Assembly (NCBI GenBank): GCA_025059195.1
Contig: JANXDU010000031.1
Coordinates: 91,892 to 155,891 of the forward strand
DNA length: 64,000 nucleotides
Direction: 5' to 3'
Origin: Candidatus Bathyarchaeota archaeon
GTDB taxonomy: Archaea > Thermoproteota > Bathyarchaeia > Bathyarchaeales > Bathycorpusculaceae
Part shown: positions 2,953 to 23,526 of the stretch, in pieces
Layout: every line of letters starts with the position of its first letter
How positions within the stretch are numbered: the first letter of the stretch is position 1
Program-made: the position numbers and the translations under genes
The notes under the pieces: model-generated
What the model was told of the DNA's origin: nothing
What the model saw: only the letters and a program-made list of their open reading frames with translations
Databases searched by the model: none

Positions 2953-3272
2953 AACGCTGTCTTTCCCCTTTTCTTCTTTAACGTTTCCCCCGTTAGTGGA
3001 GATCCGCATTTCCAACAAAACTTCGTACCTAAGGGCATAGCAAAACCACATTTCGAACAACTTACAGGGGATTGTGGATACAGAGCTTCACCGCAGTGCC
3101 AGCAAAACTTGTTTTCAATACTGTTCTTGCCGCCACATTTTAGGCAGACAACCACTTGTCTTTCTGGTTTTTCCGGCGGTCTAAAAAATTGAAACAAACA
3201 CTGCGCCATAGTCATGCCTAAGGCAAAGCCTAAACCAGCCGAGAAAGCTTCACCAACAACAGCCCTAGTCAA
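2949..3272 (-). CDS. small membrane-anchored double zinc-ribbon protein (107 aa)
   Basis: TTG start. Hydrophobic N-terminal helix (AVVGEAFSAGLGFALGMTMAQCLF). Two ribbons follow: CLKCGGKNSIENKFCWHCG and CSKCGFAMPLGTKFCWKCG. The 3' end overlaps the convergent SPFH gene by 4 nt. Confidence 0.6.
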   Translation of the reverse strand: MTRAVVGEAFSAGLGFALGMTMAQCLFQFFRPPEKPERQVVVCLKCGGKNSIENKFCWHCGEALYPQSPVSCSKCGFAMPLGTKFCWKCGSPLTGETLKKKRGKTAF

Positions 3273-3336
3273 AGTGTTTTCACTGTGAGAATTTACATTG
3301 TTGTTTCTCTTAAGTTTTTATCTGTGGTTTAACAGA

Positions 3337-3594
3337 ATGAGGGTAGGGAAAGTTTTGGAAGCCTACGTTCTGATTAATGCTGAGCCGGGCATGATTTGGG
3401 ACGTAGCTGAGGCAGCTTTGAAGATTGAGGGTGTCAAGATGGCGCATGTGGTTACTGGACAGTTTGACGTTGTTGTTTATGTGGAATTCGCCAAGGTTGA
3501 GGAGCTTGGAAGGATAATCGAGAAAATCCAGCAGGTTAAAGGCGTGCGCAGAACCCAAACTTTGATTGCTGTTCCGCCGCCAATAAGGAAATAG
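3337..3594 (+). CDS. stand-alone Lrp/AsnC ligand-binding (RAM) domain protein (85 aa)
   Basis: Matches the small archaeal RAM-domain pattern (AYVLINAEPG...V...L..I.GVK.AHVVTGQFDVVVYVEF..VEELG.II.KIQ.V.GVRRTQTLIAV). ATG at 3337 is preferred over the hydrophobic upstream extension from 3298. Confidence 0.75.
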   Translation: MRVGKVLEAYVLINAEPGMIWDVAEAALKIEGVKMAHVVTGQFDVVVYVEFAKVEELGRIIEKIQQVKGVRRTQTLIAVPPPIRK

Positions 3595-3602
3595 CCTTTA
3601 TT

Positions 3603-4211
3603 TCAGATGAATCCAATCCATCCGCCGAGGGCTTCGCCGAAATACGCGAGAAGCGTGAAAACTGCAAGTCTAGGTGCAAAACTTAAAACCAAAAACGTTT
3701 GGATGCGCGTTTTCAAAAGCCCGCACACCAGCGCGAGAAACTCCACTGGCAGCACCGGAATAATTCCAAACATGACGTAGAGGGGCCAACCCCACCGGTT
3801 CCAGAGAGCGGTTACCGCTTCAAGCTCCCCAGTTTTCATTTTCCTTTCAAGGAAAGGTCTCCCAAGGTGGCAAGCCAGAAAATAGTTTATGGTCATGCCA
3901 ATTGTAAACCCGACGGTGGCGGTCAACGCTAGCAAAACCGGATTGAGCCCAAAAGAGGCGGCGGCCACCACAAGGGCTGGGCTCCCAAGGGGCACTACTG
4001 TTCCAGCCAAAACTGTTGCGAGAAATATTCCAGCGAGACCATATTCCCTAACAAAGCCTTTGACATCCAAAAACAGCTGCGTTTTACTAACTTCAAAAAA
4101 TTTGAAAACAAAAATTAAAAACAAACCAATGACGATAAACACGAACCCAATGATTAGGGACGACTTAACCCAAGAAATTTTAAGCACGCTTAATTTTTGA
4201 TTGCTGTTCAA
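3603..4211 (-). CDS. DedA/VTT (SNARE-associated, YqaA-like) family membrane protein
   Basis: Multi-TM protein with the DedA-like core (GLAGIFLATVLAGTVVPLGSPALVVAAASFGLNP...INYFLACHLGRPFLE). The TTG start overlaps the stop of the upstream adenosyltransferase gene by 4 nt. Confidence 0.7.
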   Translation of the reverse strand: MNSNQKLSVLKISWVKSSLIIGFVFIVIGLFLIFVFKFFEVSKTQLFLDVKGFVREYGLAGIFLATVLAGTVVPLGSPALVVAAASFGLNPVLLALTATVGFTIGMTINYFLACHLGRPFLERKMKTGELEAVTALWNRWGWPLYVMFGIIPVLPVEFLALVCGLLKTRIQTFLVLSFAPRLAVFTLLAYFGEALGGWIGFI

Positions 4212-16778: not shown

Positions 16779-17114
16779 ATGTCTAATCAAACAAAATATA
16801 AACTATCCTTTAAAATATGGCTAGAACACCGTGGAAAACCCTTAATAGGAAAGGGCGGAGCCCAAATTCTGGAGCAAATAGAGAAAGAACGTTCCATATC
16901 AAGAGCTGCTAAAAACCTCGGCATGTCTTACCGCTACGTTTGGAGCTACATAAAAAAGGTTGAAAGGACTTTGGGTAGTCCAATAGTTAAAACTTATAAA
17001 GGAGGTAGAAGAGGTGGAGGCGGCGCAAAGCTCACAAATTTCGGAAAAGAACTTTTGGAAGAGTATAGACGTGTAGAATGCCTATTAAACAAGGCGCTTG
17101 CAGAAACCAAATAA
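16779..17114 (+). CDS. ModE N-terminal-domain-like winged-helix regulator (molybdate-regulator family HTH, no Mop domains)
   Basis: GKGGAQILEQIEKERSISRAAKNLGMSYRYVWSYIKKVE...GGRRGGGGAKLT matches the ModE/COG2005 HTH signature. Divergent from the TauE-like gene. Confidence 0.8.
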   Translation: MSNQTKYKLSFKIWLEHRGKPLIGKGGAQILEQIEKERSISRAAKNLGMSYRYVWSYIKKVERTLGSPIVKTYKGGRRGGGGAKLTNFGKELLEEYRRVECLLNKALAETK

Positions 17115-17142: not shown

Positions 17143-17739
17143 CTACTCTACAACATATCTGTAAACAACATGTTCGCCTGCTGTCGGGCTTTTGCGGGTT
17201 ATACGTAAAATATCACCTGGTTTCGCACCTATGGCTTTGGCCGCGGGGTCTGAAGCCTTGATTTGTGGTAGCTGATATGGCTTTACTTTATATTGGGCGA
17301 GAACTTTTTCACGTTCTTCGGGCGTTAAGATTTCATGTTTTGGCACAAGTTTATGTTCAAAGATGTCGAAGACTGGAAAAGTTTTTGGAAGAAGCTCTAT
17401 ATGTTTTTTCTTTGCTGCTTGTTTTGCGGCGTTGGTGTATCGTCCGCTTGCAATGAGTATTCCATGCTCTATTTCTGCCTCTTTCATGGCTTTTGCCATA
17501 CGATTTATGGTTAGTATACCAACCGTATCGTCTGAAACACACCAGATTAAAATTTTCCTTCCTTCATCTTTTTGGGCTTCAACAATGTAACTTGCTATAC
17601 CTTTGGTCTTTTCCTTTTTAATAAACCCGTAGCCCCTGAGCTTGATTAAGATTTTTGCTTTACGTTCTTCCAAAGTTTCTTCTTCAACACTCAAACTGTT
17701 AAACCCCGTTTGTGAATTAGAGTATTCGAACTCTAACAT
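17143..17739 (-). CDS. rpoH: RNA polymerase subunit H (Rpo5) with a long N-terminal extension resembling the eukaryotic Rpb5 N-terminal domain
   Basis: The C-terminal 75 aa are a clear RpoH/Rpb5-C domain ([68 protein letters not shown]). The N-terminal ~120 aa show Rpb5-N / inactivated Mrr-like features ([51 protein letters not shown]). Confidence 0.8.
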
Positions 17740-17807
17740 GGCGTAAACCTTTAAACTTTGCGCTTGCCAAAGCTTAAAAACTTGAGCTTTAATTATCTAA
17801 CTGTTCT

Positions 17808-19277
17808 ATGAAAGTTGGTGGTGTCGAGGTGTCTGTGGATTTTGGAAAATTAGCCTTAAACGAAGCCGCCAAAAGGGGAGCGTCCTACGCTGACATTAGA
17901 ATCAGCGAAATCCTAAACGAAAATCTAACGGTGAAGAACGGCGAGCCAGAAACGGTATCCTATTCGCAATTGAGGGGTTTTGGCGTAAGAGTAATAGTCG
18001 ACGGAGCTTGGGGTTTTGCGGGTTCCGTTGACATAACAAAGGAGGAGATTAAACGCTGCGTTGAGTTAGCTGTAAATATTGCAAAGGCTAGCGCCATGCT
18101 GAAAAAAGGAGAAGTTGTCTTGATAAAGGAAAAAGCTCACCGCGAGAAATATGCAACGAGCTTTAATAAAGACCCCTTCAAAGTTCCGCTGGAAGAAAAG
18201 CTTAAAGTTCTAGTTGAGGCTGGCCGCTTCCTAAAAGAGTTTTCACCGTCAGTGAATGTTTCCTACGCCCATTACCGCGGCTATCGTGAAAACAAGCTTT
18301 TCATGAGTAGTGAGGGCGCTGAGATAAGTCAGCAGATAACATGGTGTGGTGGAGGAATTTCAGCCATAGCTGTTAAAGGCTCAGAAGTTCAAGTGAGGTC
18401 CTATCCATCGGCTTTTCGCGGCGATTTCGCCACGAGCGGCTATGAGTTTTTCGAGTCCCTCGCCTTAATGGATCACGCTCAAACCGTCGGAAAAGAGCTT
18501 CTCCAACTTTTCGAGGCTGAAAAGTGTCCGTCTGGCGAATTGGATTTAATCCTACGTGGCGATCAGCTGGCTTTGCAGATCCATGAAAGCTGCGGGCATC
18601 CAACAGAACTTGACCGGGTTCTTGGGACAGAAGCCGACTATGCTGGCACCAGTTTTCTAACGCCCGAAAAACTTGGAAATTTCCGCTATGGTTCAGAGAA
18701 AGTTAATATTGTGGCAGATGCTACGGCGCCTTTGGGGCTTGGAACTTTCGGTTTCGACGATGAAGGAACAAAAGCGAAGAAGGTTTACCTGATCAAGGAG
18801 GGCGTTTTTGTCGGATATCAAAGCTCAAGAGAAACTGCTGCTCAACTTGGTCTAAAAGAAAGCAGCGGCGGAATGCGGGCAGACTCACCTCTGGCTTTAC
18901 CTATCATAAGGATGACTAATATTAACCTGCTTCCAGGCGATTATAAAGCCGAAGAAATTATTGAGGACACTAAAGAGGGAGTTTTAATGATGACGAACCG
19001 TTCATGGAGCATAGATGACAAAAGGATAAACTTCCAATTCGGCACGGAAATCGGTTGGCTTATAAAGAATGGAAGCCTTGAAAAGATGGTTAAGAATCCA
19101 ACGTATATGGGTATAACTCCGCAGTTCTGGGGCTCATGCGACGCTGTCAGCAAAGACGACTGGAAGATGTGGGGTACACCAAACTGCGGTAAAGGTGTAC
19201 CCGGCCAAGTCATGTATGTTGGGCATGGATGTGGAACCGCCCGGTTCAAGAAGGTTCATGTTGGACTAATAAAATGA
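17808..19277 (+). CDS. tldD: TldD-type metalloprotease (peptidase U62)
   Basis: 489 aa with the HESCGHPTELDR metal-binding motif and a Gly-rich C-terminal core. Confidence 0.9.
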   Translation: MKVGGVEVSVDFGKLALNEAAKRGASYADIRISEILNENLTVKNGEPETVSYSQLRGFGVRVIVDGAWGFAGSVDITKEEIKRCVELAVNIAKASAMLKKGEVVLIKEKAHREKYATSFNKDPFKVPLEEKLKVLVEAGRFLKEFSPSVNVSYAHYRGYRENKLFMSSEGAEISQQITWCGGGISAIAVKGSEVQVRSYPSAFRGDFATSGYEFFESLALMDHAQTVGKELLQLFEAEKCPSGELDLILRGDQLALQIHESCGHPTELDRVLGTEADYAGTSFLTPEKLGNFRYGSEKVNIVADATAPLGLGTFGFDDEGTKAKKVYLIKEGVFVGYQSSRETAAQLGLKESSGGMRADSPLALPIIRMTNINLLPGDYKAEEIIEDTKEGVLMMTNRSWSIDDKRINFQFGTEIGWLIKNGSLEKMVKNPTYMGITPQFWGSCDAVSKDDWKMWGTPNCGKGVPGQVMYVGHGCGTARFKKVHVGLIK

Positions 19278-19292
19278 GGGGGTTGATGGAGA

Positions 19293-20666
19293 ATGGTTGT
19301 GGAAAGGTTGAGGGAAATTGCTGAAAAAACTGTTCAATACGCCCTGCAACAAAAGGTTTCCCAAGCCCAAGCGGTTGCCTTTCTATTAGACAACGCCTTA
19401 ACCCGTTTTGCAAACTCTCGAATCCACCAAAACGTTGACCAGAAAAGTGGCGGAGTGGCCATTAAAGTTGTTTTAGATAAACGGATAAGCACAGTCCAAG
19501 CAGATACCCTTGATGAAAGCGGCGTTAAGGATGCTGTGCAACAAGCCATCAAAATCGCCAAGGCGTCTTCACCCAACAAGGACTTCAAAAACCTTCCGGA
19601 ACCGGAGCCGTGGAAACCTGTGAAAGGAGCGTTTGACAAAGAAACCGCTGAATGCACGCCGATGCTTAGAGCTGAAAAGGTTAAAGAAGCCATAGAAACA
19701 GCCCATGAAAAATCACCTAAAGTTACGGGGGTTGCCGGCTATCTTTGCACTCAATCCGTGGGCTATGCGGTTGCGAACTCGCTGGGAGTTTCAGCTTGGG
19801 CCGAGCTAACATTAGCCTACATGAAAACAACAGTGATTTCGCAGGATGGGGGTTCGGAAGGTTTTGGCACTGCAGAACAATATTCCAGACGCTTTAAAGA
19901 CATTAAGCCGTCCGTTTTGGCCGACGACGCTGCAGAAAAATCTGTGCGGAGCCTTCATCCCGTGAAAATTGAACCAGGCGAATACGAAGTTGTTCTATCA
20001 CCTCTAGCAGTTTCAGTTATTTTGACATATATGGGTATGGTGGGCTTTTCAGCCACAGCCTACCAGGACGGCCAGTCTTTTGTTAAGTACCTTGCAAACC
20101 AGCAAGTTTTTGATAGTAAACTCAATTTAGTTGATAACGCTAGGAATCCGAAGACCCTTTACGCTGTGCCCGTGGACGGTGAAGGGGTTCCCAAGAAACC
20201 TTTGGAGTTAATTGTGGATGGAAAGGTTTCCGAAAAGAGTATATGCTACAACTCTTTCACTGCTGGAAAGGAAGGCAAAAAGAGTACCGGCCATGCCCTT
20301 CCACCGATGGGCGACTTTTATCGCGAGAGGCCCGCGCCCTACAACATGATCTTAGAACCTGGAGATGCAGCAGTGGAAGAAGCCATTGAAGATACGAAAC
20401 ATGGAATATTTGTGACAACGTTCCACTACGTCAACCCAGTTGAGCCTACAAAACTCATATTGACTGGGCTTACAAGAGACGGCACGTTTCTCATAGAAAA
20501 AGGTGAAATAACCAAGCCGATTGTCAATATGCGTTTCACAGACAGCATGCTCTCAGCGTTCAAAGAAGTACCGATGGTTGGTGAGACTTTAGAAATCATT
20601 AGAACCACAACGGTTCCGATGGTTAAATTGAAGAAGATGCGGTTTGTAGGCGTTTCAGCTTATTGA
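19293..20666 (+). CDS. pmbA: PmbA/TldE partner of TldD (peptidase U62)
   Basis: A U62-family paralogue lacking the HExxxH-like motif. It lies immediately downstream of tldD. Confidence 0.85.
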   Translation: MVVERLREIAEKTVQYALQQKVSQAQAVAFLLDNALTRFANSRIHQNVDQKSGGVAIKVVLDKRISTVQADTLDESGVKDAVQQAIKIAKASSPNKDFKNLPEPEPWKPVKGAFDKETAECTPMLRAEKVKEAIETAHEKSPKVTGVAGYLCTQSVGYAVANSLGVSAWAELTLAYMKTTVISQDGGSEGFGTAEQYSRRFKDIKPSVLADDAAEKSVRSLHPVKIEPGEYEVVLSPLAVSVILTYMGMVGFSATAYQDGQSFVKYLANQQVFDSKLNLVDNARNPKTLYAVPVDGEGVPKKPLELIVDGKVSEKSICYNSFTAGKEGKKSTGHALPPMGDFYRERPAPYNMILEPGDAAVEEAIEDTKHGIFVTTFHYVNPVEPTKLILTGLTRDGTFLIEKGEITKPIVNMRFTDSMLSAFKEVPMVGETLEIIRTTTVPMVKLKKMRFVGVSAY

Positions 20667-20717: not shown

Positions 20718-21395
20718 TTAAACACGGATTACCACGTTTTCCACGTATTTCTTCATAATTTCAGCGAATTCGTTTATTGTTTCTAGTGTGTAGGGTTTGA
20801 CTGTTTGATAATGCTTGTCTAATGTGTCTTCTGGAATAAATTGTTGAAGAGCGTAGGTACTCGCCCCTTTCACAATCTCGCCCATTATGGTTATGTCTTT
20901 TTCTTCAACTATGTTTGGGACAACAGTTGTTCTGAATTCGTATTCTACTGCGCCCTTTTTTAATATTTCAATAGTCCGTAGGAGTGTTGTCGCATCTCTT
21001 ACTCCTAAAATGGGGTATTTCTCTGGTGAAGTTTTGAAGTCCAAAGCCACATAATCCACGTGGGGGAGACATTCCTCTAAAACTGTCGGGTTTAGGCCGT
21101 TTGTGTCAAGTTTGACGGCGAAACCGCTTTCCTTAAGCCTTTTTAGAAAGCGGGGAAGTTCTTTATGAATTGTTGGCTCTCCTCCCGTTACGACGACGGC
21201 GTCCACATATTTTTTGCGTTCCTCCAGCATATGGAAGGCTGTTTCCTCGTTTAGAAAGGGTGGTTTTGGATCTACAACGATGCGCCAGTTATAGCAGTAT
21301 GGACAGCGCATGTTGCAGCCCGGCGTGAATAGTACGGCTGCCACTCGATCTGGGTAGTCTATTAAGCTGGTTTTTTGCAAGCCGCTGAACTTCAT
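20718..21395 (-). CDS. nrdG: anaerobic ribonucleoside-triphosphate reductase activating protein (radical SAM)
   Basis: CNMRCPYCYN radical-SAM cluster motif and GGEPT. Immediately downstream of nrdD. Confidence 0.85.
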   Translation of the reverse strand: MKFSGLQKTSLIDYPDRVAAVLFTPGCNMRCPYCYNWRIVVDPKPPFLNEETAFHMLEERKKYVDAVVVTGGEPTIHKELPRFLKRLKESGFAVKLDTNGLNPTVLEECLPHVDYVALDFKTSPEKYPILGVRDATTLLRTIEILKKGAVEYEFRTTVVPNIVEEKDITIMGEIVKGASTYALQQFIPEDTLDKHYQTVKPYTLETINEFAEIMKKYVENVVIRV

Positions 21396-21402
21396 TTGGG
21401 GG

Positions 21403-23526
21403 TCACCGAGCTGTCACGGCTTGGGGTGTGATGGCGGTTTTTTCAAAGGTTCTACGTATTGCGAATTCGGCTTGTTTTCCGTCGTTCCACTGGTCTATTG
21501 GGCGGAGGTAACCCACCACTCGTGAATACACTTCGCAACGGGCTCCGCACTTGGGGCATTGTTTGTGTTCGCCGCTTAGATAGCCGTGGGTTGGGCAGAT
21601 GCTGAAGGTCGGCGTCAGCGTGAAGTATGGTATGCGGAAGTTCCATGCTACTTTGCGGATGAGTTCTGCTGCGGATTTCCACGAGTATAGGCGTTCTCCA
21701 AGATATATGTGAAAGACTGTTCCACCAGTGTATAGAGGTTGAAGCTTGTCTTGATGCTCTAAAGCCTCAAAAAGGTCCGCATCATAGTCCACTGGCAGCT
21801 GTGAAGAGTTTGTGTAGAAGGGTTCTGCGCCTTTAGCCAAATATTTCTCGTTTGCTACGATGATGTCTGGGTATTTGCGTTTGTCTATGCGGGCCAAGCG
21901 GTAGCTAGCGCCTTCGGCTGGTGTTGCCTCCAGATTGTAAATGTTGCCTGTTTCCTCCTGAAAGTCTGCGAGTTTTTCCCGCATGAAGTTCAGCACTTTC
22001 ACTGCAAATTCGAGGCCTTCAGGTGTGGCTATACTGTAGCCGAAAAGGTTTTGGACGGCCTCATTCATGCCCACCAAGCCTATGGTTGAAAAGTGGTTTT
22101 TCCAATATTTTCCAAAGGTTTCTTTTACGCCGTGAAGATACCGCTTCGAGTATGGGTATAAGCCTTTCTCAGTGAACTGTTCCAGAACTTTGCGTTTTAT
22201 TTCCAGGCTGTCTTTGGCTAGCTCCATAAGTGCCTCTAGGCGTTCAAAGAATTCGTCTTCATCTTTGGATAAATAGCCAATTCTTGGAAGGTTTATGGTT
22301 ACAACGCCTATGCTGCCCGTAAGCGGGTTAGCCCCGAAGAAGCCTCCGCCACGTTTACGGAGTTCCCTATTGTCTATTCTCAGGCGGCAGCACATGCTCC
22401 GAACGTCTTCGGGTTTCATGTCGCTGTTCACAAAGTTTGAGAAGTATGGCGCCCCATATTTTGCGGCTACTTCAAAGATTTTTTGGGAAACCAGCGAATC
22501 CCAGTCAAAGTCTTTTGTTATACAGTATGTTGGAATCGGAAAAGTGAAAACTCTTCCCTTAGCGTCGCCTTCGCTTAGAACCTTTGCAAAAGCCAAGTTG
22601 AACATTTCCATCTCTTTTTCCATTTCGCCATAAGTGGCGTCCACGACCTTTCCGCCTACTATGGCTGGCTCATCCTTCATAAAGTCTGGAACTTCCATGT
22701 CCAGGGTTACATTCGTGAAGGGTGTTTGAAAGCCTACACGGGTCGGCACATTCATGTTGAAGAAGAATTCTTGGAGGGCTTGTTCCACTTCTCTTTGGTT
22801 TAAGCCATCATAACGTATGAAAGGCGCAAGGTAAGTGTCAAAGTTCGAGAAGGCTTGGGCGCCGGCGGCCTCGCCCTGTAATGTGTAGAAGAAGTTCACC
22901 ACTTGGCCTAAAGCTGTTCTGAAATGTTTGGCTGGGGTGCTTTCAATTTTGCCCGGCACTCCTCCGAAGCCTGTCAATAGCAGGTCTTTTATGTCCCAGC
23001 CCACGCAGTACGGTCCCAGCACGCCTAGGTCGTGGATGTGCATGTCGCCGGAAAAGTGGGCTTCAGCTATGTTGGGCGGGTATATGCGGCCTATCCAGTA
23101 TTTGGCAATAACCGTGGATGAGAGGTAATTGTTTAAGCCTTGGAGTGAATAGCTCATGTTAGAATTTTCTTTAACCCGCCAGTCCTCCATCTCCAGGTAT
23201 TGGTCTACAAGGTCTGCCTGGCTTAGGAGAGCTGCGAGCTCTCTTATGTCTTGGTGCTGTTTACGGTAAAGAATGTAGGCTTTAGCGGTCCTCGCGTGGC
23301 CGTTCTCTATCAAAACCTTTTCTACGACGTCTTGAATTTCCTCAACAGTTGGGACACCGTCTTCGCCGAACCGCTTTTTAAGCTCAGCGACCACTTGGTC
23401 GCTTAATTTTTTGGCTAGTTCACGGTCTTTTCCACCCACAGCCTTGGCGGCTTTCCAAATAGCGTTTGTTATTTTTTCTTGGTCGAAGGGTTCAAGTCTT
23501 CCATCCCGTTTTCTAACAAACTTCAA
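21403..23526 (-). CDS. nrdD: anaerobic (class III) ribonucleoside-triphosphate reductase with N-terminal ATP-cone
   Basis: ATP-cone start (KFVRKRDGRLEPFDQEKI), C-terminal Zn site (CPTHG..CPKCG) and glycyl-radical motif SRVVGY. The TTG start overlaps the nrdR stop (TTGA). Confidence 0.95.
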   Translation of the reverse strand: MKFVRKRDGRLEPFDQEKITNAIWKAAKAVGGKDRELAKKLSDQVVAELKKRFGEDGVPTVEEIQDVVEKVLIENGHARTAKAYILYRKQHQDIRELAALLSQADLVDQYLEMEDWRVKENSNMSYSLQGLNNYLSSTVIAKYWIGRIYPPNIAEAHFSGDMHIHDLGVLGPYCVGWDIKDLLLTGFGGVPGKIESTPAKHFRTALGQVVNFFYTLQGEAAGAQAFSNFDTYLAPFIRYDGLNQREVEQALQEFFFNMNVPTRVGFQTPFTNVTLDMEVPDFMKDEPAIVGGKVVDATYGEMEKEMEMFNLAFAKVLSEGDAKGRVFTFPIPTYCITKDFDWDSLVSQKIFEVAAKYGAPYFSNFVNSDMKPEDVRSMCCRLRIDNRELRKRGGGFFGANPLTGSIGVVTINLPRIGYLSKDEDEFFERLEALMELAKDSLEIKRKVLEQFTEKGLYPYSKRYLHGVKETFGKYWKNHFSTIGLVGMNEAVQNLFGYSIATPEGLEFAVKVLNFMREKLADFQEETGNIYNLEATPAEGASYRLARIDKRKYPDIIVANEKYLAKGAEPFYTNSSQLPVDYDADLFEALEHQDKLQPLYTGGTVFHIYLGERLYSWKSAAELIRKVAWNFRIPYFTLTPTFSICPTHGYLSGEHKQCPKCGARCEVYSRVVGYLRPIDQWNDGKQAEFAIRRTFEKTAITPQAVTAR

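Follow-up and report, generated by a model that had tools for sequence, protein, structure and literature searches.

A probable two-domain RNA polymerase subunit H with the layout of eukaryotic Rpb5 in Bathyarchaeia and other archaea

A long rpoH gene in a Bathyarchaeota genome

In a stretch of 64,000 nucleotides from the genome of a Candidatus Bathyarchaeota archaeon (assembly GCA_025059195.1, contig JANXDU010000031.1, positions 91,892 to 155,891; hereafter, the window), the minus strand carries an open reading frame (ORF) of 198 codons that, as we argue here, probably encodes a two-domain RNA polymerase subunit H (RpoH, also known as Rpo5) with the architecture of eukaryotic Rpb5. A first-pass annotation had proposed that the last ~75 residues of this protein are RpoH and that the extra N-terminal residues correspond to the N-terminal "jaw" domain of Rpb5, with a degenerate nuclease fold. 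The ORF and its 198-residue sequence are present as quoted there, with an ATG start (Table 1). The length of the protein held only in part: the ORF is real, but the true product probably consists of 183 amino acids (aa) counted from the TTG at codon 16, because the first ~15 codons are unconserved, ORF residues 1-18 are modelled with a predicted local distance difference test score (pLDDT) below 50, and most homologues, 182-184 aa in length, start at the equivalent position. A GGGG run lies 10-13 nt ahead of this TTG codon.

In the literature, archaeal RpoH is equated with the C-terminal domain of Rpb5 only, and the N-terminal module is considered a eukaryotic addition (PMC3906176, PMC1802627, PMC3424549); more specifically, RpoH is described as lacking an N-terminal extension (PMC3906176), and Rpb5-N is listed as eukaryotic (PMC3424549). 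The premise of the first-pass annotation on this point is thus in agreement with published accounts (PMC3424549, PMC3906176).

Table 1. Features of the long rpoH locus, in window coordinates
Feature	Coordinates	Strand	Basis
Long-form rpoH/rpo5, longest ORF (198 aa + stop, ATG start)	17143..17739	-	Direct reading
Probable start, TTG codon 16 (183-aa product)	17692..17694	-	Homologue starts, pLDDT, GGGG upstream
N-terminal domain, aa 23-117, inactivated Mrr-like PD-(D/E)xK	17389..17673	-	Pfam, profiles, hhalign, model, Foldseek, dN/dS
Interdomain linker PKTFPV, aa 118-123, conserved	17371..17388	-	Alignments, model
C-terminal RpoH/Rpb5_C domain, aa 124-198	17146..17370	-	Pfam, NCBIfam, identity, TM
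68-bp divergent intergenic region, rpoH/tldD	17740..17807	.	Direct reading
Convergent 111-aa HTH_1 winged-helix (ModE-N-like) regulator	16779..17114	+	Pfam HTH_1, E=1.5e-9
TldD, divergent from long rpoH	17808..19277		
PmbA, after TldD	19293..20666		

The C-terminal domain

The assignment of the last ~75 residues to RpoH was borne out by both family collections searched: RNA_pol_Rpb5_C of Pfam (PF01191) covers aa 124-196 (E=5.7e-33, 113 bits against a cut-off of 23.5), and the RpoH equivalog of NCBIfam (NF007129) covers aa 124-198 (116.7 bits against a cut-off of 83). This domain is 61-64% identical to RpoH of Thermococcus kodakarensis and Sulfolobus acidocaldarius, compared to 49% for Arabidopsis Rpb5, and up to 72% identical to the operonic RpoH of other classes of Thermoproteota. 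In a Foldseek comparison of the full-length model, it matches solved archaeal RpoH chains (4qiw_H, 7ok0_H, 8cro_H) with a template modelling (TM) score of 0.80-0.86, and its ratio of nonsynonymous to synonymous substitution rates (dN/dS) against closer relatives is 0.014-0.027. The lower jaw is the place where, in solved polymerases, RpoH and Rpb5_C bind the largest subunit. The long form differs from the typical archaeal RpoH of 75-90 aa in that it spans 183-198 aa, with ~120 extra N-terminal residues, and is encoded away from rpoB.

The N-terminal domain: fold and loss of the active site

The N-terminal addition constitutes a genuine, conserved domain. It passes the Pfam gathering (GA) cut-offs of two families, namely, the Mrr catalytic domain (Mrr_cat, PF04471; aa 30-117, 36.9 bits, GA 21, E~4e-9), as the first-pass annotation had anticipated, and the "inactive restriction endonuclease" family NA-iREase1 (PF22722; aa 32-114, 36.9 bits, GA 27, E~4e-9). 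An AlphaFold2 model of the full-length protein, built from a 43-sequence alignment, has an overall pLDDT of 79, with the least confident stretch at aa 124-131, just past the linker, and an N domain of alpha-beta-beta-beta-alpha-beta-alpha-beta topology; modelled on its own, the N domain reaches a pLDDT of 92 and a predicted TM (pTM) score of 0.85. When this N-domain model was compared to solved structures with Foldseek, the mismatch endonuclease EndoMS (5.7e-6), MspJI (2e-4) and Rpb5-N (from 2.9e-4; query TM-score, TMq, 0.52-0.68) were all recovered, together with AspBHI and AF1548. The domain, then, has the PD-(D/E)xK fold, in keeping with the earlier suggestion.

The likeness to the Mrr nucleases stops at the fold and the Pfam matches. 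In the model, beta-strand 2 reads IASYIVE and beta-strand 3 reads KILIWCV, with IWCV located where the (D/E/Q)xK motif would sit, exactly the degeneration that had been noticed by eye; no D...(D/E/Q)xK set is conserved, and the family alignments contain no conserved acidic or lysine column in the N domain. The sole invariant N-domain residue between lineages is the arginine of an RGY motif (R20 of the trimmed protein, aa 35 of the ORF). Judging from these alignments, the N domain has lost its catalytic residues, and an active nuclease was rejected on the same ground. In further contrast to Mrr nucleases, the archaeal domain comes without a methyl-sensing, NACHT or other defence module and is only found fused to RpoH; and, in place of the NACHT/STAND NTPase conflict system that would be expected beside NA-iREase1, the neighbours of the long form are a helix-turn-helix (HTH) regulator and TldD/PmbA or, in another lineage, a set consisting of transcription factor B (TFB), Gar1 and SRP19. 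The domain is basic, with an isoelectric point (pI) of ~9.5, like the N domain of Arabidopsis Rpb5.

Kinship with the jaw domain of eukaryotic Rpb5

The PD-(D/E)xK fold alone is not discriminating because nuclease domains and Rpb5-N score alike in the N-domain Foldseek comparison. Sequence profiles, however, separate the two. We built one profile from 19 Bathyarchaeia N domains (A2), with the linker and the C domain excluded, and another, independent one from nine N domains from outside the Bathyarchaeia (A4), and ran both against the PDB with hmmsearch. The Bathyarchaeia profile recovered only Rpb5 chains (Drosophila 9mu7_E at 2.5e-6, mammals at ~5e-4, Arabidopsis at 4e-3), with no nuclease among its matches even at E<=10. 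The non-Bathyarchaeia profile likewise recovered nothing but Rpb5 above noise (Arabidopsis NRPB5A, 7eu0_E, at 1.3e-7; Drosophila 9mu7_E at 5.5e-7; human at 3.8e-6), and the alignment extends from Rpb5 residue 1 to ~126, including the N-terminal helix. Compared by hhalign to two eukaryotic Rpb5-N sequences taken from the PDB search outputs, this second profile scored a probability of 96.4% (E=1e-9, 107 columns) and the Bathyarchaeia profile 92.6% (E=4.4e-7).

When the archaeal proteins are aligned jointly with Arabidopsis Rpb5, they match it colinearly from end to end. Both have R-G-Y and (F/W/I)P-x-E-x-x-VG(I/V)K motifs, RGY being the only invariant or near-invariant feature of the N domain that is found in Arabidopsis Rpb5 as well. 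Domain order and linker are identical, in line with the observation of the first-pass annotation that the same linker leads into a HELVP(K/E)H-type motif. The comparison of predicted structures tells the same story, in that the top 34 PDB matches of the full-length model are full-length Rpb5 chains of eukaryotes or African swine fever virus (ASFV), with E-values from 1e-14 to 1e-10 over ~150-208 columns, followed by short archaeal RpoH chains and then by EndoMS; the global TM-score is low (~0.4), since the model does not predict how the two domains are oriented towards each other. Taken together, these comparisons indicate that the N domain and the N-terminal jaw domain of Rpb5 are in all likelihood homologous, and that the gene probably encodes a two-domain Rpo5 organized like Rpb5/RPABC1 of Pol I, II and III (PDB 1dzf, 7eu0_E, 9mu7_E), with an inactive PD-(D/E)xK N domain, a linker and Rpb5_C in the same order.

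Several observations pull in the opposite direction. One of the checks suggested at the outset failed: the window protein has no match to RNA_pol_Rpb5_N (PF03871) at E<=10, and two divergent relatives (P0139 and P0146) reach only 17.1 and 18.8 bits, below the cut-off of 27. The N-domain Foldseek comparison, furthermore, ranks nucleases at least level with Rpb5-N. The archaeal and eukaryotic proteins also differ in other respects: identity between their N domains is only ~26%, the archaeal long form is ~20-30 residues shorter than eukaryotic Rpb5, and an insert of ~15-18 residues between N-domain strands 2 and 3 of the eukaryotic proteins is absent from all the archaeal sequences aligned. Conceivably, an Mrr-like domain joined RpoH in archaea independently of eukaryotic Rpb5, so that the likeness reflects nothing beyond membership in the PD-(D/E)xK superfamily; the Pfam matches to Mrr_cat and NA-iREase1 rather than to Rpb5_N, the nucleases at the head of the N-domain structural ranking and the extra eukaryotic segments would all be accommodated by such convergence. 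We nevertheless consider it unlikely, given that both profile searches find Rpb5 and, even at E<=10, no nuclease, that the hhalign match spans the entire domain with its N-terminal helix and RGY motif, and that the domains follow each other in the same order, with an identical linker leading to the H-x-LVP-x-H motif. Moreover, the absence of a PF03871 match is accounted for by the model itself, which covers only residues 4-89 of Arabidopsis Rpb5.

The archaeal N domain passes the Mrr_cat cut-off, whereas Arabidopsis Rpb5 has no Mrr_cat match, and it thus occupies, on sequence criteria, a position between the Mrr nucleases and Rpb5-N. Compared to eukaryotic Rpb5, then, the archaeal long form is unmatched by PF03871, still matched by Mrr_cat, and closer to archaeal RpoH in its C domain.

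Distribution and conservation of the long form

The recommended survey of related archaea showed that the long form is no peculiarity of one genome. Among the best 120 protein clusters found with the full-length query, all 120 have the long layout, at 176-201 aa and with the same three Pfam domains, and the protein is present in 57 GTDB species-representative genomes, whose versions are between 38% and 91% identical to that of the window. These genomes are labelled Bathyarchaeia or Bathyarchaeota, with three exceptions: one is labelled only "uncultured archaeon" (L007), another "Crenarchaeota archaeon" (L037), and the third is a contig of 5 kb in a Patescibacteria bin. In comparisons with closer relatives, the N domain evolves with a dN/dS of 0.06-0.14, and therefore, the N region is translated and constrained. 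When the N domain alone was searched against 1.84 billion representative proteins, 39 matches were obtained. All the complete proteins among them have the RpoH C domain as well, and the remainder are fragments, frameshifted or chimeric ORFs, or a single low-complexity false positive; hence this N-domain family apparently occurs solely as the RpoH fusion.

Outside the Bathyarchaeia, the long form is represented by divergent groups whose N domains belong to one family with those of Bathyarchaeia (hhalign 99.8%), despite an identity of only 27-42% between deeply divergent archaeal groups. In a high-GC hot-spring group (P0154, at L059:1206-2715, and P0359), the long rpoH is convergent with a TFB gene and lies in a housekeeping context, beside genes for Gar1, SRP19, S8e and L40e; in the P0359 loci (L149:10001-11490), the 3' end of rpoH overlaps the TFB gene by 4 nt. 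Other divergent long forms are P0153/P0169, P0143, P0150, P0129 and P0136. Two proteins are more elaborate: P0139 (L146:3410-4855), of 481 aa, contains iREase-like N domains in three tandem copies with lysine-rich linkers between them, and P0151 (L147:2297-3982), of 561 aa and found in two NCBI metagenome-assembled genomes (MAGs), has a thermosome-like Cpn60/TCP1 segment that interrupts the C domain. Both have accessions of the MHA series, the GCA numbers of the P0151 assemblies are adjacent to that of a Sifarchaeia MAG, and the tetranucleotide distance of the P0139 contig to Sifarchaeia-like rpoB loci is 0.19, against a within-genome range of 0.125-0.195; by composition, accession series and neighbouring GCA numbers, an Asgard origin of these two proteins is likely.

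This spread bears on two further explanations. One is that the fusion is an artefact, produced by chimeric assembly or by reading through from an upstream ORF, and that the true gene is the short product of 85-114 aa found in GenBank. Indeed, the Bathyarchaeota records in GenBank, as called by PGAP, begin at internal codons and encode 81-114 aa (P0165-P0167, P0345, P0346); an 85-aa record (MCS7125101.1/MDW8040284.1) is identical to aa 115-198 of the window protein, with M in place of I114, and versions of 114 and 81 aa exist. Yet the open frame is conserved in the 57 genomes as well as in over 120 clusters that derive from independent assemblies, purifying selection acts on the N region, and the N domain folds confidently, so that we attach next to no probability to an artefact; a chimera or frameshift-created fusion, which the first-pass annotation had wished to see excluded, was rejected on the conservation of the layout. 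The short calls do have a consequence of their own, namely, that the N domain is absent from the proteins in nr. Nonetheless, precomputed Pfam annotations already show the two domains together, and a record of the Joint Genome Institute (JGI) bears the name RPABC1; the long Rpo5 is latent in the databases, not unknown to them.

That same record name, along with the ASFV Rpb5 among the structural matches, might suggest that a full-length Rpb5 gene entered archaea by horizontal transfer, with a eukaryote or a giant virus as donor. This we regard as very improbable, and such transfer was rejected: the C domain is of the archaeal type, the N domain lacks the eukaryotic insert and retains the Mrr_cat similarity that Arabidopsis Rpb5 has lost, the family covers deeply divergent archaeal groups, and a scan of viral contigs turned up no copy of the long form. 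The long RpoH fusion is old and has been vertically maintained in Bathyarchaeia and several other archaeal lineages.

A side product of the survey concerns three MAGs from long reads (MFD), where the long rpoH is interrupted by single frameshifts (L050:10325-10550, L051:10334-10559, L057:10313-10538), which probably are consensus errors and do not mark pseudogenes.

Sole subunit or paralogue

Whether the long form is the only Rpo5 of its carriers is a separate matter, with evidence on both sides. The first-pass annotation had noted that the gene stands apart from rpoB and rpoA, and there is neither in the 64-kb window; nor is there rpoB or rpoA' within 10 kb of the long rpoH at any of the 57 Bathyarchaeia loci. 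We surveyed rpoB by a metagenome scan seeded with the rpoB of locus L058, which yielded 80 archaeal loci, none of which could be tied to Bathyarchaeia; in 74 of these, a short rpoH lies directly upstream of rpoB (longest ORFs of 79-148 aa, without the N domain). The named loci among the 80 come from Methanomethylicia, "Thermoprotei", Thermofilum and Sifarchaeia, and a group recognized by a VKFDI motif may represent ammonia oxidisers. In composition, L098 and L100, two of the loci where rpoH is short, cannot be told apart from the Bathyarchaeota chromosome CP070784, with a tetranucleotide distance to L055 (Bathyarchaeota bin16), which comes from a different collection, of 0.15-0.16, inside the within-genome range; tetranucleotide matching gave no other suggestive pair. 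By composition, bin16-like Bathyarchaeota could also have a short operonic rpoH. Finally, a 2026 survey of archaeal polymerase subunits lists a Bathyarchaeota Rpo5 with an accession two away from that of Rpo1 (PMC13257274). From the position of the long gene off rpoB, the prevalence of the short rpoH, this adjacency of accessions and the composition of L098 and L100, it follows that the long RpoH may be accompanied by another, short one.

Under such an arrangement, the short, operonic rpoH would encode the constitutive subunit, and the long form, as an alternative or accessory Rpo5, would serve regulation by exchanging into the polymerase or by titrating partners. We treat this as a real, if doubtful, possibility. 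We found both forms together in no genome, and none of the whole-genome shotgun (WGS) prefixes of the short-rpoH records (DXJG01, CAZLZO01, JBMXXC01) matches any long-form MAG; composition alone cannot place L098 and L100 in a taxon; the "RpoH" records from Bathyarchaeota that we encountered in GenBank are all truncated calls of the long gene; and the C domain is conserved in the manner of an orthologue, both in its identity to operonic RpoH and in its dN/dS of ~0.02. The remaining six of the 80 rpoB loci, moreover, have no rpoH upstream (L128-L132, L136; about 3100-4000 upstream of rpoB). They are called Sifarchaeia-like (Asgard) because their RpoB is 94% identical to that of a named record, and where rpoH would be located, they contain a gap of ~870 bp after a divergent gene of 164 aa.

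Two further observations were made among the rpoB loci. The RpoB ORF spans 1614-1662 aa in L130, L132 and L136, compared to 1109 aa in L131, and an intein is possible. The seed locus itself (L058:1-6144), from a MAG labelled Nitrososphaerota, contains a canonical rpoH-rpoB-rpoA' operon; the label is doubtful because its RpoB is 79-81% identical to those of loci with a Methanomethylicia-labelled RpoH.

Putative function and evolutionary implications

The proposed role of the long form follows the known polymerase structures. The C domain would dock on the largest subunit (Rpo1) at the lower jaw, as in the solved archaeal and eukaryotic enzymes, and the N domain would be a basic structural module rather than a nuclease, one that could lengthen the lower jaw alongside downstream DNA, dock transcription factors, or both, in the manner of Rpb5-N in Pol I, II and III. 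Open-complex formation requires RpoH, which is situated close to downstream DNA (PMC2847245). Rpb5-N forms part of the wall of the channel for downstream DNA and is bound by several factors (PMC1802627, PMC13257274). In Sulfolobales, Rpo13 is reported to sit beside Rpo5, roughly at the place of Rpb5-N, and to contact downstream DNA (PMC2675907, PMC3479171, summarised in PMC13257274). Rpo13 presumably fills the same niche as the archaeal N domain, but it is a small, unrelated helical protein encoded by a separate gene, and we found no relationship between the two in sequence or fold. In view of the siting of RpoH and Rpb5-N, the niche of Rpo13 and the basic N domain, a non-catalytic extension of the jaw that would touch downstream DNA or factors seems the most likely function. 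The specific roles of Rpb5 in the binding of TFIIB, TFIIF or Bud27 should not be assumed for the archaeal protein. It is a reservation on the entire interpretation that we infer from homology both the incorporation of the long form into the polymerase and a part in the jaw and in DNA contact; an ancestor-descendant relationship with eukaryotic Rpb5 is likewise inferred.

The two-domain layout that was thought to be specific to eukaryotes is conserved in several archaeal lineages. Tentatively, and no more confidently than we entertain a coexisting short subunit, we suggest that the two-domain Rpb5 arose in archaea before eukaryotes, by the joining of a dead Mrr-like domain to RpoH, and was inherited vertically by eukaryotes, with the long form serving as the sole Rpo5 of Bathyarchaeia and some Asgard archaea. 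The Sifarchaeia-like rpoB loci that lack an upstream rpoH fit an archaeal origin, as do the compositionally matching contigs that carry long forms, including the one with multiple N domains. If this proposal is correct, the polymerase of Bathyarchaeia and some Asgard lineages already possessed a lower jaw of the eukaryotic type.

The bridging position of the archaeal N domain between Mrr nucleases and Rpb5-N would provide a concrete prokaryotic origin for the Rpb5-N module, and the long Rpo5 would join Rpo8, Rpc34 and the long Rpo6 among the eukaryote-like polymerase features that are scattered in archaea. Nature thus also offers a setting in which the role of the Rpb5 jaw could be studied in the absence of partners specific to eukaryotes. 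Our full-text searches turned up no account of a long form of archaeal Rpo5, and the 2026 survey of archaeal polymerase subunits reports long forms of Rpo6 but no long Rpo5 (PMC13257274). Given the GenBank calls of 81-114 aa, surveys that use those records, that one included, would miss the long form.

Neighbouring genes and other observations

The neighbours of the long rpoH are those named in the first-pass annotation, a ModE-N-like HTH_1 protein and tldD. The intergenic region shared with tldD contains putative TATA-like A/T-rich boxes, TTTTTAAG and TTTAAA, upstream of the rpoH ORF. A homologue of the HTH_1 regulator is present at 49 of the 57 related loci, compared to only 13-15 for TldD and PmbA; from gene order alone, the regulator is a conserved neighbour of the long rpoH. 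An Rfam search of the window gave no match. Farther along (window positions 20718-23526), a gene for NrdD, an anaerobic ribonucleotide reductase of 707 aa that includes an ATP-cone, adjoins one for a radical-SAM activase, a pair that fits an anaerobic lifestyle.

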